Positions 8,137 through 42,568 of a DNA stretch of 64,000 nucleotides are shown in pieces. Position numbers and translations under genes: made by a program. The DNA lies in the NCBI GenBank assembly GCA_964594735.1, contig CAZQMS010000002.1:50023-114022 (forward strand), written 5' to 3'. The stretch's first letter is position 1, and every line of letters begins with the position of its first letter. Source of the stretch: an uncultured Candidatus Saccharibacteria bacterium (lineage in GTDB: Bacteria > Patescibacteriota > Minisyncoccia > Phycocordibacterales > UBA2100). The notes beneath the pieces are model-generated. The model did no database searches, was not told where the DNA came from, and worked only from the letters and a program-made list of their open reading frames with translations.

Positions 8137-10386
8137 GTGGCGGACAATCGGCAGGGTGCTACAATCCCGGCTATGACGATACTGGAAAAGACGCTTCGCT
8201 GGATTGCGCTCGCCGGCGTGTTTGCGCTCCCGTTTGTGTGTCTATTGGTGACCTCGTCGCTCTTCTTTCCCTACATTACGGGTAAGAACTTCGCCTTTCG
8301 CATCATCGTCGAGATAAGCGTCGCCGCCTGGCTCGCGCTCGCACTCGTGAACCCCGCATATAGACCCCGGCGCTCGTGGGTACTCGCGGCACTCGCTGTA
8401 TTTGTTGCCATTATCGGGCTTGCCGACATCCTCGGCGAATACCCCTTTAAGAGCATCTGGAGCAACTACGAGCGCATGGACGGGTGGGTGACAATCGCGC
8501 ACCTCCTCGCGTACACCGTGGTCGCCGCCTCGATGCTCCAGACGGAGAAGCTCTGGCGGTGGCTGTGGTGGACGACGCTCGGCGTGTCTGCGTACCTCGC
8601 CGTATACGGCCTCTTCCAAGTTACCGGCCAGATTGCACTCGGTCAGGGTGGTGCGGCGGGATTGAGCGGCCGCATTGACGCGACTTTCGGCAATCCCATC
8701 TACTTCGCGGCGTACATGCTCTTCCACATATTCCTTGCGGCGATGCTCTGGGCGCAGCAGTGGGTGGAAAAGGGCCAGCGGAAGCGCGTCGGCATCTCGC
8801 TCGCGTACGGCTCCATCATCGTGTTCGATACCATCGCGCTCCTCCTCACCGGTACGCGCGGCGCGATTCTCGGTCTCGTCGGTGGCGCACTCCTCGCGGC
8901 GCTTCTCGTGCTCGTGCAAGCAAGTCATTCGCGCAATGCTTGGCGCGCAGCGGCAGCGATGGTTGTGGGCCTCCTTGTGCTTATCGGCGGGTTCTTCATG
9001 GTAAAAGACCAGGCATGGGTGCAGCGCATCGGTTTCCTCCAGCGCCTCGCCACCATCTCGCTCGATGATGCGACGACCAAGGCGCGCTTTATCAACTGGT
9101 CTATGGCATGGCAAGGCGTACAGGAAAAGCCGATTTTGGGCTGGGGTCAGGAGAACTACGCGCTCGTCTTCGACAAGTACTACGACCCGCGCATGCACAG
9201 TCAAGAGCCGTGGTTTGACCGCGTGCACAACATTGTCTTCGACTGGTGGGTCGCAGGCGGGACGCTCGGCCTCCTCGCGTACCTCTCGATATTCGTGGCG
9301 GCGCTCTCTGCGCTCCTCTTTTCGCGTGGTTTTAGTATCGCGGAGAGGTCTATTCTCGTGGGTCTCCTGGCGGGCTATTTCGTGCACAATTTCTTCGTTT
9401 TCGACAACGTAACAAGCTACATCCTCTTCGGCACGGTGCTCGCTTTTATCGCGTATCGAGCCAGCAAGGCACGAGATGCGAAAGCACTCTGGAGTGGCGC
9501 AATCAACCGCACGTACCTCCCGTACGTTGCGACGCTGTCTGCACTCGCGCTGCTTTTCGCGGCGTGGGGTATCAATCAAAAGCCGCTCGCGGCGAATAAA
9601 CTCCTGCTCCAGGCGCTCGCGCCGCAAGGACAGCCTGCGACAAATCTCGACTTCATGCGGCAATCGATCGAACTTGGCACCTTCGGGATGCAAGAGGCGC
9701 GGGAGCAGCTAGCGCAGATGGCAGCACAGGCGAGCCAGATGAATATTCCCGACGACACGAAGCGGCAATTCTTTGAGCTCGCTGCATCCGAAATGCGCAA
9801 GCAAGAAGATATGTCGCCTCTCGATGCGCGGTTCCCGCTCTTTCTCGGCGTGCTCTACGGCGCCTACGACTTGCACGACGACGCAAAGGCAGCGTACGAG
9901 CGCGCGCTTGCAGATTCTCCAAAGAAACAGGCAATCCTTATTCAGCTCGCGGAAAATGCGGTGGCGCGCGGCGATACAGCGGCTTCGCTCGCGTACTATA
10001 AGCAGGCGCACGAGCTCGAGACAGACTTCCCGACAGCGGCAGTGCTTTACGGTTCGGCACTTATCTTGAGCGGTGAGACGGAACAGGCAGAAGCGGTGCT
10101 CGCGCCGTATATCGAGAGAGGGCAGGCTGCAGATACGCGCCTCCTTGCAGCGTATCGTTCGACGAACCAGCTCGCGCGCAGCGTACCTGTGTGGGAAGCG
10201 GCAATACGCACAAATCCACAGGATGCGCAGCTTTACTTCACGCTCGCAGCAATTCATTACCTCTCAGGCAACAGGACTGCGGCTGTCGCGGCGCTCGAAG
10301 ATGCAAAGCGTGCGATACCGGGCATCGCCGGAGAGGCCGACACCGTGATAGAGCAGATACGCACCGGTACTGCCGAGGTGCTCTAA
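8137..10386 (+). CDS. O-antigen ligase/polymerase (Wzy_C-like) membrane protein with a C-terminal TPR repeat domain
   Basis: N-terminal ~450 aa has more than 10 TM helices with a large loop. C-terminal ~250 aa is Ala/Leu-rich and TPR-like (AYERALADSPK..., LAAIHYLSGNRTAAVAALEDAKRA). Confidence 0.65.
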   Translation: MADNRQGATIPAMTILEKTLRWIALAGVFALPFVCLLVTSSLFFPYITGKNFAFRIIVEISVAAWLALALVNPAYRPRRSWVLAALAVFVAIIGLADILGEYPFKSIWSNYERMDGWVTIAHLLAYTVVAASMLQTEKLWRWLWWTTLGVSAYLAVYGLFQVTGQIALGQGGAAGLSGRIDATFGNPIYFAAYMLFHIFLAAMLWAQQWVEKGQRKRVGISLAYGSIIVFDTIALLLTGTRGAILGLVGGALLAALLVLVQASHSRNAWRAAAAMVVGLLVLIGGFFMVKDQAWVQRIGFLQRLATISLDDATTKARFINWSMAWQGVQEKPILGWGQENYALVFDKYYDPRMHSQEPWFDRVHNIVFDWWVAGGTLGLLAYLSIFVAALSALLFSRGFSIAERSILVGLLAGYFVHNFFVFDNVTSYILFGTVLAFIAYRASKARDAKALWSGAINRTYLPYVATLSALALLFAAWGINQKPLAANKLLLQALAPQGQPATNLDFMRQSIELGTFGMQEAREQLAQMAAQASQMNIPDDTKRQFFELAASEMRKQEDMSPLDARFPLFLGVLYGAYDLHDDAKAAYERALADSPKKQAILIQLAENAVARGDTAASLAYYKQAHELETDFPTAAVLYGSALILSGETEQAEAVLAPYIERGQAADTRLLAAYRSTNQLARSVPVWEAAIRTNPQDAQLYFTLAAIHYLSGNRTAAVAALEDAKRAIPGIAGEADTVIEQIRTGTAEVL

Positions 10387-10742
10387 AACAGTCTTGCGCC
10401 GCTGCACGCGACGCATATAATACTGAGGTGAGTGCCACAAAGTGTGGCTCGCAGATTGAAAGTCGCTGAAGTACCGCCCGCAAGGGCGGTATTCAGTTTC
10501 TCCCGCACAACAGTCATGCAAAAGCACCCCTTGCGGGGTGCTTTTGAAGGGCGCACTGCGGAGGACGGGTGCGAGCTCCAAAAAGTGAAAGTCTTATGTG
10601 AGTGCCGCCGCCCTCCGCGATGCGTCCTTTTCTATCTGCTGAAAGCGTAGCACCGAGAACATGTTTGGCAAGCGTTCGCGAGCGAAAAAAATTGTGCATA
10701 CATGGACGCGAGTTATCCTGTGAAAGTGTTCTCATATAATTA

Positions 10743-10789
10743 TTATCTACATCAGAAATTCATTTTCAAAAAATAAAAAGTTATCCACA
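10743..10789. promoter_or_regulatory. Two DnaA-box-like 9-mers (TTATCTACA at 10743-10751, perfect TTATCCACA at 10781-10789) inside a ~200-bp AT-rich island
   Basis: Read directly from the sequence. Surrounding 10700-10900 is ~70% AT in a ~60% GC window. Confidence 0.35.
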
Positions 10790-10887
10790 TAATTATTTCA
10801 AAAAACATTTCTTTCCGTGCATGAGTGCAATAATAAAACAAACGCTGTAGCGTTTCGCGCGCGAAGCGAAGGTCGAGTTTAATACTC

Positions 10888-10977
10888 ATGAAAAAAATTA
10901 CATCTATGGCAAAGAAAAAGAAGGCGAAAAAGACAGCCAAGAAAAAGAAGGCCACGAAGCGCAAGAAGCGCGCGTAG
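10888..10977 (+). CDS. Micro-ORF encoding a 29-aa (or 23-aa from the second ATG at 10906) highly Lys-rich peptide
   Basis: MKKITSMAKKKKAKKTAKKKKATKRKKRA*. It is preceded by an AT-rich region and immediately followed by a strong intrinsic terminator. Below the 60-aa ORF track cutoff. Confidence 0.3.
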   Translation: MKKITSMAKKKKAKKTAKKKKATKRKKRA

Positions 10978-15663: not shown

Positions 15664-15972
15664 GTGTATACTCGAGATATGGCGAAGAAGAACGCTCGTG
15701 CATCAGATAAGGTAGACACGATTGAAAAGCTCGCAATTCTTGTGCACGAGGGCTTTGAGCGTATAGACGAGCGGTTCGAGCGCATGGATAAGCGATTTGA
15801 TGAGGTAGACGCCCAGCTGCATGATATGCGGGCTGAATTGGCAGATATACGTCGCAGAATCGAAAGATTGGAAGCCCTGGGTGCGAATCATGCCGGATTT
15901 ACGAAGGAAATTGACCACCTCATCGCGCGTGTCACCGCGCTCGAGAAGCGTCTGGCAAGATCGAGTAAGTAG
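15664..15972 (+). CDS. Small coiled-coil protein (hypothetical). First gene of the giant-fibre array.
   Basis: 102 aa with heptad-rich ERFERMDKRFDEVDAQLHDMRAELADIRRRIERLEAL. Begins 3 bp after gatB. Confidence 0.45.
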   Translation: MYTRDMAKKNARASDKVDTIEKLAILVHEGFERIDERFERMDKRFDEVDAQLHDMRAELADIRRRIERLEALGANHAGFTKEIDHLIARVTALEKRLARSSK

Positions 15973-16034
15973 CGCTGTCCACACTATCTCGCCTGAGCGA
16001 GCAACCGAGATTCGGCTCAATGTATACTTATCTC

Positions 16035-17018
16035 ATGGCAGATGAGATATACCTCGGCAACACGACATATGTATCTTCAAAGCGCGCGGCAAAGGAATAC
16101 GGCTACGCGCAGGACTACGTCGGGCAGCTTGCGCGTGGTGGAGTCATCGACGCGCAGCGCGTAGGCGGGCTCTGGTACGTGAATCCCGCCTCGCTCGAGG
16201 CGTATAAGCGCAATGCTGAGGCCTATGTGCCAAAGATTGCAGAATCCTCCATACGCCCTCCTGAGGCCGCAGACACGCTTATAACCTTCGACGGCAAGGA
16301 TTACGTCTCCGCGGCCAAGGCAGCGCGCCTCACAGGCTACAACCCAGACTACGTGGGGCAGCTCGCGCGCGCCGGCAAAGTGCTCTCCAGGCAGATTGGG
16401 AACCGCTGGTATGTAGAGCGCGATGGACTTCTTGCGCACAAGGCGCAGAAAGACGCGCTGCTTGCAAACGTACAGGCAGAGTCCGTGGGCCTCGTGCGCC
16501 CCGTACAGCCTGCACCTGCGCCGCAAAAGGCAGAGGAAAGGCCTGTGTCGTTCTACACCTATTCGAGGGACGAGAAGCACCTTATGCCGGTGATGAACAA
16601 ACCACAGCCAACAGAGGACGGTCGACATGCGGCGACTGATGTGAACGTGGGGACGAATAGCGCGGTGCGAAGCACGGAGCTGGAGGTACTGCCGAATACC
16701 GTACCGATACGCATCGTCCAGACCCCCGTTCGTGCCAGTGTCGCACCGCGCGCAGAGGCAGCGGCGGTGCCGCTTCGCCGGGGTCGGACATCCGGAATGA
16801 CTAAGAGTCTAGCGCTCAAAGCGGGAGTGGCTCTCACGGTGGTGATCGTGATGTCGTACGGCTTTGCGTCGATCAAGAGCGAGTCACTCTATGCGATGTA
16901 CGACGCAGCCGACCTCAGCGCAGTCGAGACCATGACGGCGAATGCCGCGAGCGGACTAGATGCCCTCCTAGACCTCTTGGAAGCCGCTGTGAGCAACGAA
17001 GTTCACTATTCTCGCTGA
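16035..17018 (+). CDS. Membrane protein with two tandem excisionase-like HTH_17-type domains and a C-terminal TM helix
   Basis: Two internal repeats (YVSSKRAAKEYGYAQDYVGQLARGGVIDAQRVGGLWYV and YVSAAKAARLTGYNPDYVGQLARAGKVLSRQIGNRWYV) match the HTH_17 pattern. There is a TM helix at aa ~265-285. The longest ORF starts at 16020. Confidence 0.6.
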   Translation: MADEIYLGNTTYVSSKRAAKEYGYAQDYVGQLARGGVIDAQRVGGLWYVNPASLEAYKRNAEAYVPKIAESSIRPPEAADTLITFDGKDYVSAAKAARLTGYNPDYVGQLARAGKVLSRQIGNRWYVERDGLLAHKAQKDALLANVQAESVGLVRPVQPAPAPQKAEERPVSFYTYSRDEKHLMPVMNKPQPTEDGRHAATDVNVGTNSAVRSTELEVLPNTVPIRIVQTPVRASVAPRAEAAAVPLRRGRTSGMTKSLALKAGVALTVVIVMSYGFASIKSESLYAMYDAADLSAVETMTANAASGLDALLDLLEAAVSNEVHYSR

Positions 17019-17361
17019 GTATCCCACAGTCGATAGCCACAAAGCGGCGCCCGAAAGGGCGCCGCTTGTCATTTGTGCGTTGCACGCGCGAAATGTCGCT
17101 TTACATCGTTGCTCGGGAGTCCGAGTCGGCGCGGAGGTGCGGGTAGGTACGAGGCGAGAGGTTGTAGTGACGAGAATTCTTAAAAAAAGCGGAGAATTTT
17201 TTGCGCGTTGAAGCGAACTCGGAAGAAAAAAATAAAAAATGTCCGATACGAAATTCGTGTAATGTTTTCCACACAAAATCGTGTCCAATATGCGTCCAAT
17301 ACACGAAAAGACTAGTAAACTGTTAGATAAATCGTGCATCCGGCCTGATGAACAAACGCTC

Positions 17362-20300
17362 ATGAGCAACGAAATTTTCTTCGACGGATTGAAGTACATC
17401 TCGGCCGGCGATGCGTCTGAGACTACGGGACTTTCGCGTGACTATATCGCGAGACTTTGTCGCGACGGAAAGCTTCGCGGAAGGCGGGTTGGGAAGAACT
17501 GGTACGTCGATGAAGAGTCGCTCAGGCGTTTTGGTATCGAACAGGAGCATCAGAAGGCGGTGCGTAGGGTGCAGCTGTCGGAAGAGAGGGTGCGAGAGTA
17601 CCGCGGCGCGGCGGACAAGCCGCAAAGTTTAAAGTTGCAAGTAGAAAGTGAAAAGGCGACGGCCGTGACTGCGGTCACGAGCCATGAGTCACCAGTCACC
17701 CCCAAGGTGGCGCAACCAGTTGCGCCGACGGCCGTGACGAAAACATTTGCGGCGCACGCGAAGCACGTGCAGGACAAGCTTGCGGCCGCAGCGCTCGCAC
17801 AAAGTGCGAGAGTCGCACATGCGATGCCGTCTATCGCTGCAGCACCAAGTGGTGTGCATGAAGCGGTCGCACGTACGCTCAGCCATGCGCACGTGCATGT
17901 GCCGGTGTACACGCTCACACCTGCGGCGGAATTCTTGCAGAAGTTCGTTGCAATCTTTGTTGCGTTCACCATGACATTTGGCACGTACGCTTTTGTAGAC
18001 CCGGCGTACGCACGCTTTGCGGTAGAGTCTGCTCGCGGATTTCTCGCGAGCACTACAGAGTCGCTCGCACGCATTGATGACGCTGCTGATCGCGCGATGC
18101 GTGTGGCGCATAGCTCTGCGTACTTCGCTGCGGAGAATCCTGAGGTGGCGCTCGCGCAAGTCTCGAGCGCGACGCTCGCATTTATCCCGAACGCGCTGCA
18201 GAATCTCGCGCGCTCGTTCAACACGAGTGTCGACACCTTTGTCTACAACATCCTTTTCTCCGACGGTGCGACGAATTCTCTCGCGCTCACGCCGCTCGAC
18301 CCAGGATTTGTGGACGCGACAGCGCCGTATGAGCGTGCGCAGCAATTGGCAGCGCAGACATCTGTGCCACCCACCGTCGCAACGAGTACGACGACCGTCA
18401 TCACCAATGAGCGAATCGTCGAGCGCATCATTGAGACGGAGCGTATTGTCGCCGCGGCGGGCGGCATCAACGATGCGGACCTCGAATTGCGTCTTTCGGC
18501 GCTCGAGCAGCGCCTCACAGGCCTCGTCGCCGGTGTCTCTACGGCACAGACCACAAGCGTGAACAACGTCTACCAGACAGTGGCGCTCACCAACAAAATC
18601 GACCAGCTCAGTAGCGTCGACATTTCGGACTCTACGATTACGGGGGGCACCCTTTCGGGAGTGTCGCTGAGCGATATTTCATTCTCCGGTACCGCCACCA
18701 CGACCTTCGCCAATGGGATTGACCTTGCCGACGGGTGCTTCGCCGTAGATGGCGCGTGTATCACCGGCGGCGGTGGCTCTGTAGACACGAGCGTCTCGAA
18801 CAACTGGACGGCGCTCCAGATATTCTCAGGCGGTGCATCGAGTACCAACTTCTCCAACTTTGGTACCGCGTACTTCGGCGGCAGCGCGACGACGACCATC
18901 GACTCGACGGGGGCGCTCTCGCTCGCTAACCTCACCAATTCACTCTTGTGGGTAAATGGTAGCGGCACGGTCGCCGCGACGACGACGCCTACCGCCGCCT
19001 ATTTCATCGCCACGTCTACATCCCTTGCTTCTTCGTTCCCGTACGCATCATCGACCGCACTCTCCGTCTCGGGCACCGCATTCTTCCCCGGCTCCGGTAT
19101 CTGGGATTCATCCGGCAACGTCGGTGTTGGGGACACAACTCCAAGCTATGCACTCGATGTCAATGGCGTCGTGGCAACCAATAATTACTTCTTCAATACA
19201 AACACTGCGGCAACGCAAGTTCTCCTGAATAGTGGAACGACGTATTACGGTAACATTCAAAATGAAAGTGGTTCGCCGGACCGCTGGTCACTCGGGTATG
19301 GCACTACAAACACCACGGCACTCAAGACGCCGGTTCTCACTTGGACGAGTGGCGGAAATGTAGGTATTGGTACTTCGACGCCGTGGGCGAAGTTCTCGAT
19401 TGCGAACTCGACGGGCGACACCGCTGGCCAAGCGCTCTTCACCATCTCCTCCTCGACCGCATCTGCGACGACGACGCTCTTCCACGTGGCGAATAGTGGG
19501 AATGTGGGGGTGGGTACATCCAGTCCCATGGGGTTGTTTTCAGTGAGTGGTCAAATGACGAGTGACAGTTGGTGTTCGAACACACTCAGTGTCTGTGTGT
19601 ATCCTAGCAGCGGATTTTTCGCTATACGTAATCGGGCTAATAGCGCGTACGCACCAGTCTCGTTGGCTAACGTCTACTTTGGTGACGCGAATGTATATGT
19701 TGGTGGCGCAGGCATCACTGACACAGGGTCAACTCTTACGGTGGGAGGGAATTTAAGTGCCCATGCGTTTTATGACAAGGGCAACACTGCCTATTATCTA
19801 GACCCCGCGGCGGCAACATCTCTCATTGTTGCCGGCAAGGTCGGTGTGGGCACTACGTCGCCACTCGCCAAATTCGCAGTGCACGCTAACAACGGCGAGA
19901 CCAATACGCGGCTCTTTGAAATCGCATCTTCGACTGCGAGTGCGACGACAACACACTTTGTAGTGACCAACAGCGGGAATGTGGGTGTTGGGACAGCGAG
20001 TCCGTCAGGAAAATTGCACGTTGAAAACGGTAGATTTCTGGCAACAAGAAGTTCCAACAGCAAAGCGGCACACATCGCGTCGTTTGGTTCTTCGGCTAGC
20101 GCGGGGAACTCCTTGATAATTTACGGCGGAAACAATAGCGGAGACCCAATGTACATCGGCACAGACTACTGGTCTTCCGATGGTCAGTTGAGACTCGGCA
20201 CCTATACGACACCGGATACGATTGCGCTCGCAACGAACGGCAACGTCGGCATCGGGACGACGGATCCTCAGGCACTATTGCAAGTGCGTAAAAATCAGGC

Positions 20301-23300
20301 TGCAAGCACATGGGTTTCGGTTGCAAATTCGAATGCCGGTGGAACGGCAGGGTATCAGATTGGTTATACGAGCGCGGGCGAGATGGCTTCCCTCTATAGT
20401 GATATGGCGACAAATGATTTGTACTTGAAAAACGTTGCTACGGGCGGAGATTTCCGCGTCCTCGTTGAAGACACTACAGAGGCACTGACAATCTTAAACA
20501 CCGGCAACGTCGGCATAGGGACGACGACGCCCGGGTCGCTGCTCAACCTGTATGGAACAGGAAGCGGTACGGAACTTCGAATCGACAATGGTGGTGCCGA
20601 CGGCGACCCGTTCGTAAGCTTTGCACTTTCTGGTACACAAACATGGATTGCGGGAATCGACGATAGCGATAGTGACACGTTCAAGATAAATGCCACTTCC
20701 GGCAACTTCAACACAACAGGCCTCGCCATCACCACTTCCGGCAACGTCGGCATCGGGACGGCGAGTCCGCAAGGTGGTCTTTCCGTTGCGAGCGCGCTCA
20801 CGAGCACATCTCCCAGCGTTGTGGGGTGGCATCTCGGGACAACAGGCGGAACGACAAATGGACTTGAATCGTACAATACCGCAGCTACATACCTCGACTT
20901 CAGCAGTGTTTCGGAGCGCGATTATGATTTCCGACAGATCTTCACCGCCTCCACGAACGATTTACAATTTATTTCTTCTTCTACAAATCCTATCCTAACG
21001 CTCAAAGGAACCGGCAACGTCGGCATCGGGACGGTGAGTCCTGCCACTGCACTGCACATGTTGGGTAACTTCAGGATTCGACCTACTGGCGCCAGTACCG
21101 ACCTCAATATTTTGTTGAATTCTTCCGACCTTAGCATAGAAGGGACCGGTAGCTTGCGGCTGTCGTCGTCAGGTTCATCGCTCAAATACACTGTTGGCGC
21201 CTCGGGTGTTGGCGAAGTAGACCACATCTTTTACGGTGGCGGTTCGACCGCGGTCGCGCGCATTGAATCAAACACGCAGGCCGAGTATGCGAGACTGTCA
21301 CTGCAATCTGGTACCGCAAACAATTTCAGCCAACCCTATTTCACTATCACGTCGAATGGAGGCTCGACTGGCAACATCTTTACACTCAATTCGGCTGGCA
21401 ACGTCGGAGTAGGGACGACGACGCCGTGGGCGAAGTTCTCGATTGCAAACAATACGGGCGACACGGCGGGCCAGGCGCTCTTCTCCATCTCTTCCTCCAC
21501 CGCATCCGCAACGACGACTCTCTTCCACGTAGCGAACAGCGGGAATGTGGGTATTGGGACGGCGAGTCCTAGTTACGGACTGGATGTAACGGGGACAGGA
21601 AGACTTACTTCAACATTTGCGTGGGGTACAAGCGGTGCCACATACATGTACACGATTGGAGGAACGCAGAGGTACGGTTATTCCACAGCGAACGCGAATG
21701 TTCTGTATTCAGGCGGGAGTGGTGGTCTAACGATTTGGAATCAAGCTGACAGCTCGGAACTTGTTCGCATTACCGATTCTGGCAACGTCGGCATCGGGAC
21801 GACGAGTCCGTATAAGCATTTATCGATAAGCAGTAGTGCCAACTCCGACACCTCAGTAGTCATCGCTAATACGCATGCCAGTTTTAGCGCCGCAGTTTCG
21901 TCGACATACCAAACCGCGACCAAACGTTTCGATGCAGGATTGCTCGGTAACAGTAATTCTGTTGCTCCGAACTCATACTATATATACGATTCCAATAACG
22001 ATGCATTCCGCTTCATTGTGGGCGCGACGGGTAACATTGGTGTCGGTACAACAAGTCCGACCAACAAGCTCTCAATCGAGTCCAACACTGCGACGATTGG
22101 AGGACTTGCGGAAAATCTCAGGGTTGCAGGGGATCAGTACGAAGTAGGCATCGGGCTCGCGAACTACGGCTCTGGCGGCAACACATGGTCGCTCATGGCA
22201 ACGCGGGGGAACTCGTCTTTCGGAGGTGCAAAATTCCTCATCGCTGATTCCGCAGCTAACCGTTTCGCAATCGACTCCTCCGGCAACGTCGGCATCGGGA
22301 CGACGTCGCCACTTACGAAACTTTCAGTTCAGGGCACTGCGGGTGACAACGACGTCTTCAACGTCGCGTCGTCGACGGGTGCGAGCATGTTCTATGTCGA
22401 TTCGAGCGGGAAGGTCGGCGTGGGCACGATGACGCCTGATTATGCCTTCACCGTAAGCGGCACCGCTGCGACGTATGCCAGCGTGCAAAATTCCGCCGAT
22501 GAAGAAGCCGGTATTTTCTTCAGCACTGCAGCAAACGGCGGCAACGGCTGGGCACTGTTTATGGACGGGTCCAACGTAAACGATTTGGGCGCGACGCACA
22601 GGCTCGGCTTCTATTCCACAGATCTCAGTGCGACCACGATGACGCTCGACGGTGTGACGGGGAATGTGGGAATCGGGACGACGACGCCGTACAGCAAGCT
22701 CACAGCATGGGGCGGCGCGAGCGGCAACATTTTTGAAGCGGTCACGTCGGCCTCGACCACGGCGCTTCGCATCGCGGCAGATGGATTTGCGACGACGACA
22801 CTTTCCGGTCTCAGCATCAGCGGCAGCGCGACATCCACGTCCAACGTCGGCTTCAACCTCACTGCCGGCTGCTTCTCTATAAATGGTACGTGCGTCGGTG
22901 GGGGCAGTGGTTCGGGTACGGTCGGTAGCGGCACTACGGGGTGGTTCCCGTACTATGCGGGAGATGGCACGACACTCACCGCCACCTCCTCGATCTTCCT
23001 CGCAACAAGCGGCAAGATCGGCATCGGGACGACGACGCCGCGCAGGGGGCTGTCTGTTGTATCTTCTTCAGCGGCAGACACCAATGCCGAGTTTACGAGT
23101 ACGGCAAATGACGGATTTGGGGGATTCAACATATACAATAACTTCGGCACGCTCGTTACATCACTAGTCCACTCCAATGCCGGGGCAAGCGTTAATGCCA
23201 GTTCGACCTGGTTTGGTACAAGAAATGATGAGTCGCTACATCTTGTCACCAATGGCGCAACTCCGCGCCTGACTATCGACTCTTCCGGCGACGTCGGCAT

Positions 23301-24477
23301 CGGGACGACAACTCCGCGCTCGTTGCTCCATGTGGCGGGTACCGACCTCAGCTCGTTCACCGGCACAAGCAACGGCCTGCTGACTGTCGACGGTACATCG
23401 GGCAACAATTCGTATTATCAGGCGATCGATTTCAACGCGAGCGTAGTGAATGGGCGCACAACCCCCTTGGCGCGAATCGCGTCGCAGCGAACTGGGTCTG
23501 GCTCGTACCTCTACTTCGGTACGTCGAACAGTTATGCATCTGGTATTACCAACACCGCTCTTACGATTAATCCGAGTGGCAACGTCGGTATCGGTACGAC
23601 GACGCCGTATGCGAAGCTGACCGTATGGGGAAGCGGGACGGGGACGAATCCGCTGAGCGAGTGGGTCGACAGCGCGTCGACCACGATTGCGCGCATCCTC
23701 GAGAACGGCACGGCGTATTTCGCGGGCAACCTCGGCGTGGGCACCACATCGCCATTCCGCAAATTCTCGGTGACAGCGGCAGCAGCGAATCCGCAGGTGG
23801 CTATCTCGTACGACGATTCCACGGTTGCCTCGCTCCAGGTAGATTCGACGGGCGACCTCATCGTGACGGCGAGCGGACAGAATGTACTCCTCAACGACGA
23901 CAACATGCTCGTCTGCGCATCCGGATGCCCCACGTCGCCGACCGGCGCGGGCAAGCTCTACGTAGAGACGGCAGCGGGAATAGGCACCACGACTCCTGCG
24001 GCCAAGCTCACCATAGAGACGCAAGACAGCTCGACCAACTTCATCCAGGTCGCTTCGACCACCGCGCAGTCTATATTTGTCATCAATGCCAACGGCAACG
24101 TGGGCGTGGGTACGTCGACGCCGTTTGCCAAATTCACCGTGGGTGCAAATGGCGCGATTGCGACGGTAGAAAACAGCCTCTCCGATGGCGCGACGGTGGC
24201 TATCAACTGGCGCGACGGCAACCAGCAGAAGGTCGTGCTCGGCGGCAACCGCACGATTACATTCTCCAACTTCATCGCCGGACAAATCCTGCGCCTCGTC
24301 GTCTGCCAAGACGGCACGGGAAGCCGCACGCTCACGTGGCCTGCCGTCGTGCGCTGGCAGGGGGGAAGCGCGCCGACACTCACCACTACCGCCAACAGCT
24401 GCGACCTCGTCTCATTTGTCGCGACCAATGCCACGTCGAGCTTGGTGGTCTTTGGTGCTGCGGCGTTGGACTTCTAA
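17362..24477 (+). CDS. Giant fibre protein A (~2370 aa). Excisionase-like HTH N-terminal domain, single TM helix, long Thr/Gly/Ser-rich beta-helix-like repeat region with GNVGIGTTTP repeats, and a distinct C-terminal tip domain without S74.
   Basis: N-terminus MSNEIFFDGLKYISAGDASETTGLSRDYIARLCRDGKLRGRRVGKNWYV. TM helix FVAIFVAFTMTFGTYAFV. More than 15 copies of [GS]GNVG[IV]GT[TA][ST]P...K[LF]. The ORF track start at 17281 is probably an N-terminal over-extension. Confidence 0.85.
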   Translation: MSNEIFFDGLKYISAGDASETTGLSRDYIARLCRDGKLRGRRVGKNWYVDEESLRRFGIEQEHQKAVRRVQLSEERVREYRGAADKPQSLKLQVESEKATAVTAVTSHESPVTPKVAQPVAPTAVTKTFAAHAKHVQDKLAAAALAQSARVAHAMPSIAAAPSGVHEAVARTLSHAHVHVPVYTLTPAAEFLQKFVAIFVAFTMTFGTYAFVDPAYARFAVESARGFLASTTESLARIDDAADRAMRVAHSSAYFAAENPEVALAQVSSATLAFIPNALQNLARSFNTSVDTFVYNILFSDGATNSLALTPLDPGFVDATAPYERAQQLAAQTSVPPTVATSTTTVITNERIVERIIETERIVAAAGGINDADLELRLSALEQRLTGLVAGVSTAQTTSVNNVYQTVALTNKIDQLSSVDISDSTITGGTLSGVSLSDISFSGTATTTFANGIDLADGCFAVDGACITGGGGSVDTSVSNNWTALQIFSGGASSTNFSNFGTAYFGGSATTTIDSTGALSLANLTNSLLWVNGSGTVAATTTPTAAYFIATSTSLASSFPYASSTALSVSGTAFFPGSGIWDSSGNVGVGDTTPSYALDVNGVVATNNYFFNTNTAATQVLLNSGTTYYGNIQNESGSPDRWSLGYGTTNTTALKTPVLTWTSGGNVGIGTSTPWAKFSIANSTGDTAGQALFTISSSTASATTTLFHVANSGNVGVGTSSPMGLFSVSGQMTSDSWCSNTLSVCVYPSSGFFAIRNRANSAYAPVSLANVYFGDANVYVGGAGITDTGSTLTVGGNLSAHAFYDKGNTAYYLDPAAATSLIVAGKVGVGTTSPLAKFAVHANNGETNTRLFEIASSTASATTTHFVVTNSGNVGVGTASPSGKLHVENGRFLATRSSNSKAAHIASFGSSASAGNSLIIYGGNNSGDPMYIGTDYWSSDGQLRLGTYTTPDTIALATNGNVGIGTTDPQALLQVRKNQAASTWVSVANSNAGGTAGYQIGYTSAGEMASLYSDMATNDLYLKNVATGGDFRVLVEDTTEALTILNTGNVGIGTTTPGSLLNLYGTGSGTELRIDNGGADGDPFVSFALSGTQTWIAGIDDSDSDTFKINATSGNFNTTGLAITTSGNVGIGTASPQGGLSVASALTSTSPSVVGWHLGTTGGTTNGLESYNTAATYLDFSSVSERDYDFRQIFTASTNDLQFISSSTNPILTLKGTGNVGIGTVSPATALHMLGNFRIRPTGASTDLNILLNSSDLSIEGTGSLRLSSSGSSLKYTVGASGVGEVDHIFYGGGSTAVARIESNTQAEYARLSLQSGTANNFSQPYFTITSNGGSTGNIFTLNSAGNVGVGTTTPWAKFSIANNTGDTAGQALFSISSSTASATTTLFHVANSGNVGIGTASPSYGLDVTGTGRLTSTFAWGTSGATYMYTIGGTQRYGYSTANANVLYSGGSGGLTIWNQADSSELVRITDSGNVGIGTTSPYKHLSISSSANSDTSVVIANTHASFSAAVSSTYQTATKRFDAGLLGNSNSVAPNSYYIYDSNNDAFRFIVGATGNIGVGTTSPTNKLSIESNTATIGGLAENLRVAGDQYEVGIGLANYGSGGNTWSLMATRGNSSFGGAKFLIADSAANRFAIDSSGNVGIGTTSPLTKLSVQGTAGDNDVFNVASSTGASMFYVDSSGKVGVGTMTPDYAFTVSGTAATYASVQNSADEEAGIFFSTAANGGNGWALFMDGSNVNDLGATHRLGFYSTDLSATTMTLDGVTGNVGIGTTTPYSKLTAWGGASGNIFEAVTSASTTALRIAADGFATTTLSGLSISGSATSTSNVGFNLTAGCFSINGTCVGGGSGSGTVGSGTTGWFPYYAGDGTTLTATSSIFLATSGKIGIGTTTPRRGLSVVSSSAADTNAEFTSTANDGFGGFNIYNNFGTLVTSLVHSNAGASVNASSTWFGTRNDESLHLVTNGATPRLTIDSSGDVGIGTTTPRSLLHVAGTDLSSFTGTSNGLLTVDGTSGNNSYYQAIDFNASVVNGRTTPLARIASQRTGSGSYLYFGTSNSYASGITNTALTINPSGNVGIGTTTPYAKLTVWGSGTGTNPLSEWVDSASTTIARILENGTAYFAGNLGVGTTSPFRKFSVTAAAANPQVAISYDDSTVASLQVDSTGDLIVTASGQNVLLNDDNMLVCASGCPTSPTGAGKLYVETAAGIGTTTPAAKLTIETQDSSTNFIQVASTTAQSIFVINANGNVGVGTSTPFAKFTVGANGAIATVENSLSDGATVAINWRDGNQQKVVLGGNRTITFSNFIAGQILRLVVCQDGTGSRTLTWPAVVRWQGGSAPTLTTTANSCDLVSFVATNATSSLVVFGAAALDF
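19363..19525 (+). repeat. ~165-bp unit repeated at 21398-21565 (same gene) and 35365-35530 (giant gene B), ~85-90% identity
   Basis: All three encode GNVG[IV]GT[ST]TPWAKFSIAN[SN]TGDTAGQALF[TS]ISSSTASATTTLFHVANSG. Confidence 0.75.
22655..22915 (+). repeat. ~260-bp segment ~90% identical to 34555-34815 (giant gene A vs B)
   Basis: Both encode TTTPYSKLT[AV]WGG..GNIFEAVTSASTTALRIAADGFATTTLSGL.ISGSATSTSNVGFNL..GCF.INGTCVGGGSG, with largely identical DNA. Confidence 0.75.
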
Positions 24478-24483
24478 TCATCT

Positions 24484-24969
24484 ATGACAACTATTCACCA
24501 ATTCGAAGACATGATGGCCTGGAAGAAGGCGAGGGAGCTCGCACGCGAGGTCTACACGGCGTTGCGCAGCAACAAGGACCGCGGATTTACCGACCAGATT
24601 CAGAGGGCAAGCGTTTCTGTCGTCTCGAACATCGCAGAAGGATTTGAAAGCGGCACGCGCGATATGTTCCTCAATTATCTCTACATCGCAAAAGGTTCGT
24701 GTGGGGAAGTGCGCGCGCAGCTCTACATCGCACACGACATCGGATACATAAACGTTCAAACATTTACATATTTGAATGACCTTGCTTTGCAGACTTCGCG
24801 GCTGATTTCTTCTTTCATCAAAGCGCTCAAGGGTTCGCCTCATCAGGGACTGCAGAGGAAGAAGGAACAGACGAAAGAAGAGAAATCCACAGAAGAATTT
24901 CTCCAGGATGCGCGCAAAGAACTAGCGAAAGTGATGCCGCACATATACGGGGTGGATGCGAAGAAATGA
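24484..24969 (+). CDS. Four-helix-bundle protein (23S rRNA intervening-sequence protein family, PF05635/TIGR02436) with a Lys/Glu-rich C-terminal tail
   Basis: DMMAWKKARELAREVY...SVVSNIAEGFESGTRDMFLNYLYIAKGSCGEVRAQLYIAHDIGYI matches the family consensus. Starts 7 bp after giant gene A. Confidence 0.85.
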   Translation: MTTIHQFEDMMAWKKARELAREVYTALRSNKDRGFTDQIQRASVSVVSNIAEGFESGTRDMFLNYLYIAKGSCGEVRAQLYIAHDIGYINVQTFTYLNDLALQTSRLISSFIKALKGSPHQGLQRKKEQTKEEKSTEEFLQDARKELAKVMPHIYGVDAKK

Positions 24970-27900
24970 ATATGTATAAACGTTTTAACATTCAAGGTGT
25001 AATGGAAAATGCGTGGCGCTGGCGGCTCGTCATAGCTGCAGCTCTGGCTATCGGCTACTTCACCGCGCAATTCGCCCTGCTCCAGCTCCCGCAGGCGGAG
25101 GCGGCGTATACGATAGGCAACAGCGCGCGCTTCAACGACGATGATAGCGCGTATCTCACGCGCACTCCTTCTTCCGGTGGTAATCGCCAGAAGTTTACCC
25201 TCAGCGTCTGGTTCAAGCGCGGCAACTTGTCGACCGCGCAGTACATATTCCAGGCGGGTGCTGACAACAACAACCGGACCATAGTCGGGGAGTTTCGAAG
25301 CGCTGGATCAGTGGACGCAATTCGAGTCGCGCAAGTCGACGCTGGTGTAGTAACTCTTCTTGAGGATACCTGTGGCGTGTTTCGTGACCCTGCCGCTTGG
25401 CAACACCTTGTGGTGGCTGTCGATACCACTCAAGCCGCTGGGGCAGATCGGGTGCGTGTGTACGTCGACGGTATACAGCACGACCCTTGCACGAGCGAAA
25501 CAACGATTACACAAAATACAAACACGTACGTAAATCACACGGTTGCACAGTACGTAGGCACCAACTTGGGCACAGGGAGCTTTTACGACGGCTATATGGC
25601 AGATGTGCACTTCATCGACGGGCAGGCGCTCACACCGAGCGACTTCGGCGAATACGACGACAACGGCTACTGGCGGCCTAAGAGTTACACGGGCACGTAC
25701 GGTACCAATGGCTTCAAGTTCAATTTCGGCAACGGAAGCGAACTCGGCGACGACGTAAGCGGCAACGCGAACGACTGGACGGCCACCAACATGGACGCAA
25801 CCGACCAAGTCATCGACACGCCGACAAATTCGTTTGCAACCTGGAATTACCTTGTACAAAGCGGTATCTCTCAAGGCAACTTGCGAGCTGTCACGATCGG
25901 TAGTTACAGCACGACAGGTTTTCTGCACCTAACCGACATTCCGGTGGAAAGCGGATCATTCTACTGCGAGGTGACGCAGGTTAGCGAAACTGATGCGGTC
26001 ACTGCGGTCGTCGGAGTATACGCCCCTTCCGCTGCGGTATACACACAGGCCGGATCGGAGCCGTACCGTGTCGCATACCGCAGCGACGGTCAAAAGGACG
26101 TTGTTGGTACTGCATCAGCATACGGCGCTTCATGGGATCCGGGAGACATTATCGGTGTCGCACTCAATGCGAGCACAAATGCAGTCGAATTCTACAAAAA
26201 CGGATCTGCGCAAGGCAGTATCGATATTCCGTTTTCGGGCCCGTACGTGCTTCTCGTTCACGACCATACCGGGTCCCAGACGGCGACCCTCGATTTGAAC
26301 TGCGGTCAGGGTGGGCAAAGCGGTCTCACGTACGACAGCGCGAGCGGAGGATACTTTGAATACACGCCACCAAGCGGTTTCAAGGCGCTCTCCACATCCA
26401 ATCTGCCCGAGCCGGATGTGGCGGTGCCCAAGAATTATTTTGATGCGGTGACGTACACAGGCACGGGTGCGCCGCTCAACGTCCTCCAGACGGGTACAAG
26501 CACCAATGGGACGGGCTTCATACCTGACCTTGTGTGGCTCAAGGGCAGAGCCACGTCGACGAGCCATGGTCTTTTCGATTCAATCCGCGGAGTGGTGCAG
26601 CGGCTCGCGCCAGAAGTGAATACTGCGGAGACTACGGAGACAGAATCGCTCACCGGTCTCGTGCCGCTTGGGTACGTATCGCAGCTCACCAATCCCGGCG
26701 GCAACAACGAGCTGGACAACGCGCGCGGTGTCTTTGTGGTCGGCAACTACGCATACGTCACCAACGAAACGCGTGACTCTCTTGCGGTGATAGACGTATC
26801 CGACCCTGCGAATCCAACATTCGTGACTGAGGTGCGGAACCCCAATGGCAGCAACGAACTCGATGGCGCGCGAGGCATATACGTCAGCGGCAACTATGCG
26901 TACGTGGCTACCGTTACTCGTGACTCACTCGCCATCATCGACATCTCGAATCCGCTTAGCCCCAGCTTTGTGACCGAGGTCATAAGCCCCAATGGTAGCA
27001 ACGAGCTCGATGGTGCAACGGGGGTGTATGTTTCGGGAAATTACGCGTATGTCGCCGCAGCCACCCGAGACTCACTGGTCATTCTCGACATTTCCAACCC
27101 CGCAAGCCCGAGCTACGTGTCAGAAGTGCGCAGTCCAGGGGGCAACAATGAACTCGACGGTGCCTTTAGTGTGTTCGTGCAGGGCAACTACGCCTATGTG
27201 GCCAACCTCACCCGCGATTCACTCGTGGTCATCGACGTTTCCACCCCGGCGAGCCCGAGCTTCCTCGCTGAGGTGCGCGACCCAGGAGGACAAAACGAGC
27301 TCAATGGCGCAGCTGTTGTGTCTGTGCAGGGGAACTACGCATACGTATCTGCGAATACACGGGATTCGCTCGTCGTTATCGATATATCCACTCCGGCGAG
27401 TCCGAGCTACGTGACAGAACTCCGTACGGGTTCGGGCGGTCTGCTCAATGCCATACACGGACTCTACGTGTCGGGCAGCTATGCATACGCCACAGCGGAG
27501 GCGCGTGACTCACTCGCCATTATCGATATATCGACCCCGACAAGCCCGAAGTTTGTCACCGAAGTTCGCCCCGGAGGAACCGATGGCCTTCTCAACGGAG
27601 CGCGCGGAGTCTTTGCGCTTGGCGACTATGTGTACGTAACCACCGGAGCAGGTGATGCGTTCACGATTATACAGGCGACCGATTGGCCGAGCGGCTTTAC
27701 GGTCGGTACCGATACCGAGTTCAACTACTCCGGAGAGACGTACGCCTCATGGCTCTGGAAAGAAAGTGTGACGAGCGGCTTCGATATCGTGACGTATACC
27801 GGTACCGATGCGAGCAATCGCAATGTATCGCATTCGCTCGGTGTCACACCGGACTTCGCCATCGTCAAGGATCGCAACAATGCGATGAGCTGGTACGCGT

Positions 27901-29102
27901 GGCACAGCTCGTTTTCGGGAGCGACCACATTCGCGATAGTCGATACGGATGCCGCCACGTCGACCACGAGTTCACCGTGGGGGACCGGGAGTTGGACATC
28001 GTCTACATTCCGCGTCACCAACGACGCAACCAACAACACAAACGCGCTGGATATTACAGGTACGGAACTGCTTCTCCAGGGCGACGGTGCAGATGCCGCG
28101 ACGACTTTTACAGACAGCTCTCCGGTCGGTCGCACCATGACCGCCAACGGCAACGTGCAGATAGACACTGCGCAGAGCAAGTTCGGTGGTTCATCAATAC
28201 TTTTCGACGGGACAGGCGACTACCTGAGCGTGGCAGACAACGGTGATTTCGACTTTGGTACAGGGAACTTCACGATCGATGTGTGGGTCCGCTTCACCGA
28301 CAGCACCGGAAGTCACACAATCCTGAGCGGGCTTGATAGCGGCGACCTGATGTTTGCCAAAGATACCGATGGCTCCTTGCGCTGGGGTCGGTCACTCGTC
28401 GCATGGGACACGATTACCCCCGACCTGACGTGGACCAACGGCGTCTGGTATCACCTTGCGGTGACGCGTTCTGGCAATTCCGTGAGGATATTCAGGGATG
28501 GTGTGCTGATAGATACCGAGACAGAGACCCAATCGTACAACGTTACGACGACCTTTGCCGTAGGGCAGCGCGAGGGCACACACTTTTTCAACGGGCACAT
28601 GGATCAGCTCCGTATCGACAAAGGTACGGCGCGTTGGACGGCGGCGTTTACACCCTCGACTGTCGCGTATCACGACGGCAGCTACGTCGCCTACCTCTTT
28701 GCTGCAAAGGAGGGCTTTTCCGACTTTGGCATCTATACGGGCAATGGCAGTGCGGACGGGCCGTTCGTATACACCGGCTTTAAGCCGCGGTTCATCATGT
28801 TTAAGCGCACCAACAGTACAGCCAACTGGCGCATCATGGACTCGGCTCGCTCGACGTACAACCCTGCCACGCACCTCCTTTTCCCGAGCGTATCCACCGC
28901 AGAGACGACCACTGACTCGGTGGACTTCCTCGCCAATGGTTTCAAGCTCCGTAGTACAAGCACCAACATAAACGGAGGCAGCAACCAGTATATCTATGCC
29001 GCATTTGCCGACGTGCCCTTTAAATACTCGGCAAGCACGCCAGCAGTAGAGGCGGGTGTGAACAACGGATTTATTCCGTTCCTCATCGGAATGGAGATAT
29101 GA
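24966..29102 (+). CDS. Large surface protein (1378 aa): signal-anchor, ConA-like/LamG lectin-like domains, an 8-blade LVIVD-repeat beta-propeller, and a C-terminal Laminin_G_3 domain
   Basis: Eight ~42-aa repeats of the form GNYAYVA..TRDSLxVIDVSxPxSPSxVxEVRxPGGxNELDGA (LVIVD repeat, PF08309). C-terminal ...GNFTIDVWVRF...WYHLAVTRSGNSVRIFRDGVL...GHMDQLRID is a LamG-like lectin fold. ATGA overlap with the upstream gene. Confidence 0.85.
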   Translation: MNMYKRFNIQGVMENAWRWRLVIAAALAIGYFTAQFALLQLPQAEAAYTIGNSARFNDDDSAYLTRTPSSGGNRQKFTLSVWFKRGNLSTAQYIFQAGADNNNRTIVGEFRSAGSVDAIRVAQVDAGVVTLLEDTCGVFRDPAAWQHLVVAVDTTQAAGADRVRVYVDGIQHDPCTSETTITQNTNTYVNHTVAQYVGTNLGTGSFYDGYMADVHFIDGQALTPSDFGEYDDNGYWRPKSYTGTYGTNGFKFNFGNGSELGDDVSGNANDWTATNMDATDQVIDTPTNSFATWNYLVQSGISQGNLRAVTIGSYSTTGFLHLTDIPVESGSFYCEVTQVSETDAVTAVVGVYAPSAAVYTQAGSEPYRVAYRSDGQKDVVGTASAYGASWDPGDIIGVALNASTNAVEFYKNGSAQGSIDIPFSGPYVLLVHDHTGSQTATLDLNCGQGGQSGLTYDSASGGYFEYTPPSGFKALSTSNLPEPDVAVPKNYFDAVTYTGTGAPLNVLQTGTSTNGTGFIPDLVWLKGRATSTSHGLFDSIRGVVQRLAPEVNTAETTETESLTGLVPLGYVSQLTNPGGNNELDNARGVFVVGNYAYVTNETRDSLAVIDVSDPANPTFVTEVRNPNGSNELDGARGIYVSGNYAYVATVTRDSLAIIDISNPLSPSFVTEVISPNGSNELDGATGVYVSGNYAYVAAATRDSLVILDISNPASPSYVSEVRSPGGNNELDGAFSVFVQGNYAYVANLTRDSLVVIDVSTPASPSFLAEVRDPGGQNELNGAAVVSVQGNYAYVSANTRDSLVVIDISTPASPSYVTELRTGSGGLLNAIHGLYVSGSYAYATAEARDSLAIIDISTPTSPKFVTEVRPGGTDGLLNGARGVFALGDYVYVTTGAGDAFTIIQATDWPSGFTVGTDTEFNYSGETYASWLWKESVTSGFDIVTYTGTDASNRNVSHSLGVTPDFAIVKDRNNAMSWYAWHSSFSGATTFAIVDTDAATSTTSSPWGTGSWTSSTFRVTNDATNNTNALDITGTELLLQGDGADAATTFTDSSPVGRTMTANGNVQIDTAQSKFGGSSILFDGTGDYLSVADNGDFDFGTGNFTIDVWVRFTDSTGSHTILSGLDSGDLMFAKDTDGSLRWGRSLVAWDTITPDLTWTNGVWYHLAVTRSGNSVRIFRDGVLIDTETETQSYNVTTTFAVGQREGTHFFNGHMDQLRIDKGTARWTAAFTPSTVAYHDGSYVAYLFAAKEGFSDFGIYTGNGSADGPFVYTGFKPRFIMFKRTNSTANWRIMDSARSTYNPATHLLFPSVSTAETTTDSVDFLANGFKLRSTSTNINGGSNQYIYAAFADVPFKYSASTPAVEAGVNNGFIPFLIGMEI
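26640..27660 (+). repeat. Eight tandem ~126-bp repeats encoding the LVIVD beta-propeller blades
   Basis: Recurrent ...GGCAACTACGCATACGT... / ...GACTCACTCG...ATCGAC... units visible in nucleotide and protein sequence. Confidence 0.7.
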
Positions 29103-29671
29103 CACATGGAGAACGACGTATGAAAAACGAATCACATAAAACGAAAAACGAAGTACGAAGTACGAAGTGCGCGAACTCGTATAAGGAGTTCTACATGACG
29201 GGCATTGCAATCTTACTTCTTGCATCGTGCTTCATGCTTCGTCCTTACATTGTCTCGGGTGGTTCTATGGAGCCGACGCTATCCGCAGGCGATGTCGTGA
29301 TAGTTGAAAAGTTGAGTCACCGGTTCGACAAGCTCACGGCAGGCAGATTCGGCATCAGTCGAGGCGACATCTTGGTGCACCGCAATCCGCACCAGAAAGA
29401 GGTGATTGAAGTGAAGCGGGTAGTAGGCATGCCGGGTGAGCTCGTGGAGCTTGGCGAGGATGGGGTGACGGTCACGGATAGCGAGGGAAGAATCACGAAG
29501 TATGAAGCAGGAAGCACGATAGGCGGGACGAACAATGGGGCATTTCGCATCCAGCTTAGTCCCGAAGATTACTTCGTCCTCGGAGACAACCGCAGCAAGA
29601 GTAGCGATGGCAGAGATTTTGGAGCAGTACAGAAGGCAGACATTATCGGCACATTATTAATCACCTTATAA
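29099..29671 (+). CDS. lepB: Type I signal peptidase (S26 family)
   Basis: SGGSMEPTL catalytic Ser box, VHRNP, RVVGMPGE and GDNRSKSSDGR boxes, with an N-terminal TM anchor. ATGA overlap with the LVIVD gene. An alternative start lies at 29192. Confidence 0.85.
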   Translation: MTHGERRMKNESHKTKNEVRSTKCANSYKEFYMTGIAILLLASCFMLRPYIVSGGSMEPTLSAGDVVIVEKLSHRFDKLTAGRFGISRGDILVHRNPHQKEVIEVKRVVGMPGELVELGEDGVTVTDSEGRITKYEAGSTIGGTNNGAFRIQLSPEDYFVLGDNRSKSSDGRDFGAVQKADIIGTLLITL

Positions 29672-42514: not shown

Positions 42515-42568
42515 CATAACCACAGGTGGCACTCGTGGTGAGCTTCTGCCGTGGGGTATACTCGGCAC

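Follow-up and report, generated by a model that had tools for sequence, protein, structure and literature searches.

Transmembrane transcription regulators such as ToxR, CadC, TcpP and VtrA/VtrB carry an N-terminal cytoplasmic DNA-binding-type domain, a linker, a single transmembrane (TM) helix and an extracytoplasmic part in one chain; they are widespread, and helix-turn-helix (HTH) domains of the HTH_17 family are rare among them (151 of 50,302; PMC10269533). The principle of a membrane-tethered DNA-binding domain is already known. Here we analyse a 64,000-nucleotide stretch of DNA from an uncultured Candidatus Saccharibacteria bacterium (contig CAZQMS010000002.1, positions 50,023 to 114,022; hereafter the window), in which three genes follow this layout: T (16035-17018), for a 327-aa (amino acid) bitopic protein, and A (17362-24477) and C (38294-42514), for giant fibre-like proteins of 2371 and 1406 aa. 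All three begin with a module of about 60 aa related to excisionases. The original prediction, made from the letters alone, had called a DNA-binding-type fold fused to giant extracellular fibres unexpected; given the published regulators, such a domain on a membrane protein is less so. The genes A, B, C and T, their modules and TM segments, the promoter elements of T and A and the hairpin after T all lie on the forward (+) strand.

The window holds four copies of the module, one in A (aa 1-60, 17362-17541), one, degenerate, in C (aa 1-59, 38294-38470) and two in T, called T1 (aa 1-60, 16035-16214) and T2 (aa 80-140, 16272-16454). Translation of 17362-17700, 38294-38650 and 16035-17018 returned the sequences described earlier and, together with the profile search below, bears out the predicted positions at the N-termini of A and C and twice in tandem in T. 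The length given before (∼45 aa) has to be corrected to ∼60 aa, a span that runs from an N-terminal beta-hairpin through the HTH and its wing to a helix at the C-terminal end, and the motif M-[AS]-[DN]-x-I-x-[FL]-[DG]-G fails for T1, which has L-G-N instead of [FL]-[DG]-G. The four copies are homologous. A leave-one-out profile of 108 modules, searched against the six-frame translation of the window, found exactly these four (E = 4.7e-27 for T1, 1.2e-28 for T2, 4.5e-29 for A and 1.6e-10 for C), the next match having E = 0.74; since all 108 came from other genomes, this control is free of circularity. BLASTP links T with A (E = 2e-11) and with C (E = 1.8e-7) and aligns A with C from residue 1 across ∼575 aa (E = 1e-43). 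Identity to the A module is 34-35%, with ten positions invariant in the four-copy alignment. Pfam HTH_17 (PF12728, cut-off 27 bits) recognises two stretches of T (37.3 bits), scores A just under the cut-off (25.7 bits) and does not match C, and TIGR01764 stays below its cut-off of 28.8 bits for both T (17.5) and A (23.5); despite these Pfam scores, BLASTP and the profile establish A and C as homologues of the T modules.

AlphaFold models of the module (predicted local distance difference test, pLDDT, 86-97 overall; 86 for the isolated module, >92 for T1 and >93 for T2 in full-length T) show a beta-hairpin followed by two helices, then a beta-hairpin wing and finally a C-terminal helix, the wing following the HTH and pairing with the N-terminal strand as in HTH_17-type folds. 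The best structural matches are Xis, BldC, MerR, TraN and RacA, and the module matches PHROG excisionase families; among solved structures a sequence search gave no significant match (best E = 0.36). The module is a winged HTH of the Xis/MerR type, predicted to lie in the cytoplasm, belonging to the HTH_17 superfamily and bearing an extra N-terminal beta-hairpin, yet it forms a distinct sequence family within the Xis/MerR winged-HTH superfamily. The excisionase/MerR-type HTH of the original prediction thus finds support in Pfam HTH_17, in sub-threshold TIGR01764, in the PHROG families, in the HTH-like fold of the AlphaFold models and in structural matches that include TraN by Foldseek. It is not a MerR-family protein in the strict sense: the Pfam profiles MerR and MerR_1 gave no match, and in place of the long dimerising coiled coil of MerR there is a helix of just 23 aa after the second HTH of T and none of that kind in A.

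Modules fall into three classes, T1 (signature QDYIGQLAR...RVGGLWYV), T2 (QDYVGQLAR...SRQVGNRWYV) and G, carried by the giants, both A-like orthologues and additional paralogs (RDYIARLCR...GRRVGKNWYV, with three arginines on the recognition helix RDYIARLCR). Mean identity is 54-69% within a class and 35-43% between classes, and D27, Y28, L32, R34, G36, G44, W47, Y48 and V49 are common to all three. D27, Y28, Q/R31, R34, R41/42 and W47, each either invariant or specific to a class, sit on the recognition helix and the wing, where basic residues are also concentrated. On the recognition helix the exposed positions (30, 31 and 34), like the wing arginines, are constant within a class and differ between classes, which is the pattern expected of a specific ligand; such residues would fit DNA recognition, although they do not prove DNA binding. 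Across species, G-class modules keep 54% mean identity versus ∼30-40% in the rest of the protein, and their recognition helix is nearly invariant.

T begins with its two tandem winged HTH modules; a helix, a disordered linker and a TM helix come next, and an outer tail of ∼50 aa ends the protein. The helix after T2 (aa 129-151, 16419-16487) contains H135, K136, K139 and D140, invariant in 114 sequences, and L143 is invariant as well; ∼100 disordered residues separate it from the TM helix (aa 257-279, 16803-16871, from hydropathy and the AlphaFold helix), and an amphipathic helix lies in the outer tail (aa 297-319, 16923-16991). AlphaFold does not fix the mutual placement of T1 and T2 (predicted template modelling score, pTM, 0.37). 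Hydrophobic segments were called by Kyte-Doolittle hydropathy (19-aa window, threshold >1.6), and T, A and C have one each: residues 255-281 of T (1.86), aa ∼203-235 of C (2.24; TM helix at ∼38915-38977) and aa 194-213 of A (17941-18000; 1.64, borderline), a putative signal anchor. No signal peptide stands ahead of any module copy, and in T, A and C the module lies N-terminal to a single hydrophobic helix, as predicted. The 150 best cluster representatives of the T family (median length 320 aa) have a TM segment in 97% of cases, with a median start at residue 251 and a median tail of 51 aa, and carry 3.9 lysines and arginines on the N side of it versus 1.4 on the C side, by the positive-inside rule a clear N-in signature. 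The T family is therefore anchored by a single TM segment with its modules in the cytoplasm. For the giants the predicted cytoplasmic location is probable rather than established: in 40 A-like proteins, whose hydrophobic segment starts at a median of aa 185 behind a low-complexity linker (median 112 aa), flanking charges are uninformative (1.25 versus 1.5), and we infer N-in topology of A and C from homology to T, lack of a signal peptide and extracellular-type domains downstream. Two linker motifs, TY..E..DLMP.L (∼aa 176-185) and IPIRV (∼aa 224), are also conserved in the T family, as is an E...Y.R motif at the extreme C-terminus outside the cell (the region from helix to C-terminus is 16419-17015 in the window).

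The T family is large. Word-indexed searches gave 590 homologues, the best 120 all named 'hypothetical' or 'DNA-binding protein', and HMMER found representatives of clusters defined at 50% identity, 10,265 of them with E ≤ 1e-3 and 425 with E ≤ 1e-30; the 150 that score best are all T-like. The same word-indexed approach gave 4 hits for the module alignment and 17 for A 1-330, mostly fragments that say little on architecture. To describe the gene neighbourhood we used one genome per species, selected through A (33 loci), all from metagenome-assembled genomes of Kaiserbacteria, Paceibacterota or Parcubacteria, some of them labelled 'Saccharibacteria'. T and an A-like gene lie downstream of gatB in all 33, and a module-bearing giant directly follows T in every one. 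Where found, secA is upstream of gatB (29 loci), as is a Wzy_C/TPR gene (20 loci). T-like proteins at these loci have 292-337 aa, two modules and a TM helix, and A-like proteins have one module (two in three loci), a TM segment and lengths up to >3,395 aa. A second sample, metagenome loci picked via T alone (complete T and at least 1.5 kb downstream, n = 45), gives nearly the same picture, the next gene after T bearing the module in 44. At one locus (L034) T is followed by a giant of 2,739 aa that lacks the module and starts with an ordinary signal peptide of the cleavable kind; at another (L036), where T is only 29% identical, gatB is followed by a small MerR gene, then by T and then by surface proteins without the module. 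From these exceptions T emerges as the conserved core and the module on giants as a frequent addition. The small gene of L036, the most divergent T locus, encodes a soluble MerR/HTH_17 protein (9517-9837, minus strand), is a divergent insert between gatB and T, and has a TTATCCACA box at its start.

We considered an origin of T and the module from a phage or mobile element and rejected it, since no relatives turned up in viral contigs and the chromosomal context is fixed. Nor is the module a true excisionase, which would accompany an integrase on a prophage or integrative element: its chromosomal position is constant across species, and the 29 window open reading frames (ORFs) scanned include no recombinase, the neighbours being secA, gatB, fibre genes, GAPDH and pentose-phosphate genes.

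The fibre-like nature of the giants is well documented. A, C and the 2444-aa paralog B (30930-38264), which is related to both by BLASTP, match PHROG 'tail fiber protein' families (1e-48 for A, 4e-36 for B, 6e-21 for C), and B and C contain Peptidase_S74 and bacterial surface Ig-like domains in Pfam, so that 'surface fibre' is a fair description. Peptidase_S74 is the intramolecular chaperone of phage fibres and spikes. B serves as an internal control: it gives no match to the module profile, and its residues 57-393 are 38% identical to C 178-486 over ∼340 aa by BLASTP, the TM and post-TM region being common to both proteins.

Transcription signals around the pair are also conserved. The T promoter (15976-16034) consists of a box, TGTCCACA (15976-15983), an inverted repeat, TATCTCG/CCGAGAT (15985-16011), and a -10-like TATACT (16023-16028) ending 6 nt before the ATG at 16035. 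A pattern of ATCCACA, N39-42, TATACT, N6-7 and start codon occurs in its strict form in 12 of the 38 sequences compared and in a looser form in 66 of 78 metagenome loci; the distance of 6-7 nt from TATACT to the start codon suggests a leaderless T mRNA. The start of T is likely 16035 and not, as annotated, 16020: the 332-aa protein of the database would then begin within the -10 element and is probably 5 codons too long. A terminator-like hairpin read from the sequence after T (GCGGCGCCC-GAAA-GGGCGCCGC and a T-rich run, 17044-17065) points to separate transcription units for T and A. The T-A spacer is 259-923 bp long, and in the window the A promoter region (17240-17343) has phased TCC-core boxes at 17240, 17265, 17281 and 17292, then a CTAGTAAACTGTTAGATAAATCG block (17312-17334) and GCATCCGG (17336-17343). 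Up to four forward boxes are found just upstream of A (in locus L004, for example, TTATCCACA, TTCTCCAC, GATATCCCCA and GATATCC). A-type promoters have 3-4 boxes with an 11-12-bp period, and a conserved CTAGTAAAATACTAGATAAATCG block follows the phased boxes, upstream of the fibre gene. TCC-core spacings of 11-12, 22-23 and 34 nt far exceed shuffled controls, with 18 pairs at exactly 34 nt versus 0.2 expected. With at most one mismatch, forward TTATCCACA precedes the giant in 62 of 66 independent metagenome loci. Conservation of the spacer boxes and of CTAGTAAAATACTAGATAAATCG (in the window, L001-L033 and L038-L117) is far above that of surrounding non-coding DNA. The T and A promoters thus have conserved forward boxes, which are candidate operators, in common.

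Two other roles for the T-A spacer were tried and rejected. A replication origin, for which phased TTATCCACA boxes and an AT-rich block might speak, does not agree with GC skew, which is positive across the window with no switch at 17 kb, or with the presence of boxes before several genes. An RNA element gave no Rfam match, and the CTAGTA...TACTAG palindrome varies without compensating changes.

What do the modules do? The reading we favour, at about even chances, is that they bind DNA from the membrane and regulate or tether the fibre genes. A disordered linker of ∼75-245 aa and one TM helix would hold the module at the inner face of the membrane. T would be the core, its two tandem modules acting as a built-in pair, as in TraN of pIP501, ahead of the TM helix and short outer tail, and the next gene would supply a giant tail-fibre-like surface protein, usually with a G-class module in its N-terminal, cytoplasmic part. 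Together with T, the fibre N-termini could then act as transmembrane regulators of surface-fibre genes, locus tethers for them, or both. Regulation would follow the logic of ToxR/CadC/VtrB, possibly through modules bound head-to-tail along direct repeats, in the manner of BldC and Xis; BldC occupies 2-4 such repeats in this way (PMC5859096). For the Vibrio parahaemolyticus T3SS2 (type III secretion system 2), evidence of assembly by membrane-localised expression, or transertion, has been reported (PMC9977878). This reading draws on conserved basic and polar residues on the expected DNA-binding face, the topology of the T family, the conserved gene pairing, the observations against a transport tag (below), the candidate operators and these precedents, to which the abundance of transmembrane regulators (PMC10269533) belongs. 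A more far-reaching version is rather doubtful: in Kaiserbacteria-like bacteria within the candidate phyla radiation (CPR), fibres might be coupled through the membrane to DNA, with the HTH at the fibre base and T lined up head-to-tail on phased promoter boxes, such that the state of the fibre (assembly, load, host contact) feeds into transcription, or the locus is kept at the membrane, where proteins of 2,000-3,400 aa would be transcribed, translated and exported in a coupled manner.

It should be noted, however, that a number of observations speak against DNA binding or against the boxes as its target. The modules are not strongly basic, with a net charge, counted by hand, of ∼0 for A and T1 and ∼+3 for T2. 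The C module, with the weakest profile score of the four and no Pfam match, is degenerate, and the TM segment of A is borderline hydrophobic with flanking charges that do not fix its topology. RodZ illustrates that a membrane-tethered HTH can bind a protein and not DNA. TTATCCACA is the DnaA-box consensus, and same-orientation phasing of 11 bp fits DnaA arrays such as that of E. coli oriC. An exact TATCCACA is conserved in the spacer of a 29-aa Lys-rich ORF upstream of secA in 17 of 20 loci, and boxes also precede the module-less giant of L034 and GAPDH in the window. Box-like AATCCACAG...TTTCTCCAGG (24884-24907) lies within the 3' end of the ORF for a '23S rRNA-intervening sequence protein' (IVP), upstream of gene D, and in L036 the box is unchanged although the recognition helix differs. 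The box as a private operator of the module had seemed promising (32 of 39 upstream regions of module genes versus 4 of 142 of other genes), and its presence elsewhere reduced it to a lead. The layout before GAPDH shows that the box is not private to HTH genes, and its constancy in L036 and before unrelated genes means that it may belong to another factor. The boxes may be bound by DnaA, by T and A or by another factor, and do not settle the target.

The region upstream of GAPDH (42516-42571) has the same layout as that of T, with a AACCACAGG box, GGTATACT at 42555-42562 and an ATG at 42569, which is likely the start rather than GTG 42551. The 29-aa ORF in the window (10888-10977, MKKITSMAKKKKAKKTAKKKKATKRKKRA) is located between the Wzy_C/TPR gene and secA, and the AT-rich spacer (10742-10977) has two boxes, TTATCTACA at 10743 and TTATCCACA at 10781.

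The strongest competitor, which we still regard as improbable, is a protein-protein adaptor in the manner of RodZ: the winged HTH would bind a cytoplasmic protein (MreB, FtsZ/FtsA, DnaA or a secretion component, for example) and so hold T and the fibres in place, or in clusters, within the envelope. In its order of an N-terminal HTH, a linker, a TM helix and an outer part the architecture parallels that of RodZ, the HTH of which binds MreB, the two linker motifs and the invariant helix after the second HTH resemble partner-binding elements, and the net charge of the modules is modest; T also keeps a housekeeping-like position by gatB and secA even at 29% identity, and DnaA explains the promoter boxes equally well. 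All close structural relatives, however, are DNA binders, the conserved residues are on the recognition helix and wing, no match to the RodZ profiles HTH_25/DUF4115 was obtained and no partner was identified. Less probable is that T, aided by the fibre N-termini, is a general DNA-membrane tether similar to RacA that anchors the chromosome or certain loci for segregation or organisation in very small cells and plays no part in transcription. RacA is among the structural matches, a long flexible linker suits reaching the nucleoid, and T stays near secA and gatB throughout 125 T-bearing loci, as expected of a housekeeping factor, but such a tether leaves the recurrent module on neighbouring fibre genes unexplained, no repeated chromosomal binding sites are known, and it does not account for the elements common to the T and A promoters.

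The original prediction had suggested that the module may serve recognition or sorting in a dedicated export or assembly pathway. Our results do not support this, and we consider it distinctly improbable, also as a variant in which a signal peptidase cuts a very long signal-anchor region and frees an HTH stub. The extreme N-terminal place of the module on several large surface proteins, secA two genes upstream, Ala-x-Ala-like motifs after the TM segments and, inside the fibre cluster of the window, a gene for an S26 signal peptidase would all suit such a tag. However, T, which bears the module twice, exports only ∼50 aa, B and the giant of L034 are exported-type fibres that do without the module, the latter by means of its ordinary signal peptide, and none of the 33 related loci has an S26 gene near the pair. 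Models of sorting signals (KxYKxGKxW, YSIRK and similar ones in NCBIfam and Pfam) found no match in T or in the first 330 aa of A, B and C. The module sits 130-190 aa ahead of the TM segment and not directly before the hydrophobic core, unlike known N-terminal sorting signals, and a folded winged HTH is not a known targeting element of the Sec or signal recognition particle (SRP) pathways. Least probable of all, and hardly credible in our opinion, is an evolutionary relic, a functionless duplicated piece of T carried along with the neighbouring gene. It would explain the changes in the C copy (W47 to I, DY to AH, loss of the Pfam match) and the giants without a module in some lineages, but not G-class modules better conserved than the rest of the protein, with a nearly invariant recognition helix, nor their presence in 44 of 45 unbiased loci; a ratio of nonsynonymous to synonymous substitution rates (dN/dS) well below 1 is already suggested by module conservation.

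Several other features of the fibre cluster deserve mention. A and B share patches of 75-80% amino-acid identity (22609-22884 versus 34512-34781 and 21379-21594 versus 35346-35561) on a background of ∼30% elsewhere, which suggests recent gene conversion or cassette exchange among fibre genes. The cluster also contains the IVP gene (24484-24969) and the S26 gene (29099-29671); among the 33 related loci, an IVP gene is near the T-giant pair in one (L033). Gene D (24966-29102) codes for a surface protein of 1,378 aa in which LVIVD repeats are combined with Laminin_G_3, SPRY and DUF7483 domains and with a hydrophobic segment near the N-terminus; it has no module and is not of the same family as A, B and C. 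Between gatB and T, a coiled-coil-like ORF of 102 aa (15664-15972) has a counterpart in none of the 33 loci and may be lineage-specific or else no gene.

The CPR/Patescibacteria, which live attached to other cells, account for a large part of bacterial diversity; to our knowledge, almost nothing is known of their surface appendages and gene regulation. New here are the three-class Xis-type module, the double-module protein T locked beside gatB and the fusion of the module to tail-fibre-like giants in CPR bacteria, and our comparisons suggest an undescribed link between cell surface and DNA in ultra-small CPR/Kaiserbacteria-like cells. We found no paper that connects HTH_17 with CPR or with giant surface proteins or that describes the T family, and no NCBIfam model scores above its cut-off for T or, within their N-terminal 330 aa, for A, B or C. 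A family of more than 400 clusters at 50% identity (E ≤ 1e-30), with a precise architecture and a strictly conserved partner gene, is thus without a curated model or description, and a concrete two-gene cassette with a short promoter region makes it testable. If the modules bind DNA, they would connect the cell surface with the chromosome by a minimal route of one step, in organisms whose regulators are very few, and would provide the first example of a giant fibre with a DNA-binding domain built in; if it is protein that they bind, they would be markers of an unknown cytoplasmic organiser of the envelope.

In comparison with known systems, BldC of Streptomyces and the excisionases of phages and integrative and conjugative elements (Pukovnik Xis, Tn916 Xis, RdfS) differ in being free-standing soluble proteins of 50-70 aa, unlike T, A and C. 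Their sequence similarity to the module is not significant, no integrase or mobile element is nearby, viral contigs contain no relatives, and BldC sites repeat every 9 bp whereas the boxes described here do so every 11-12 bp. RodZ is also bitopic, with an N-terminal cytoplasmic HTH that binds MreB, a linker, a TM helix and an outer domain, but its HTH is of the Xre type (HTH_25) and its outer domain is DUF4115; since neither profile matches here, the layout alone is alike. RacA, the chromosome anchor of Bacillus subtilis, likewise fastens DNA to a membrane-associated site through a MerR-like winged HTH and is a structural match, but reaches the membrane via a coiled coil and DivIVA, not by a TM helix of its own, and is specific to sporulation. 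TraN of the Enterococcus plasmid pIP501 (PDB 4p0y), like T, has two tandem excisionase-like winged HTHs in one chain and is among the best Foldseek matches; as a top sequence match it is weak (profile E = 0.36-0.76), so the similarity is at the level of fold only, and it is a soluble cytoplasmic type IV secretion protein without a TM helix. ToxR-like regulators use an OmpR-type winged HTH (Trans_reg_C), a profile to which no match was obtained, and a small outer sensor domain, in place of which T has ∼50 aa and the giants a phage-tail-fibre-like part of 1,400-3,400 aa. Patescibacteria do not appear in the supplementary files of the published survey (PMC10269533), as far as these are accessible. 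With an Xis/MerR-type HTH_17 domain and one hydrophobic segment each, T, A and C nevertheless fall within the transmembrane regulators as that survey defines them, by a recognised DNA-binding domain together with at least one TM region.

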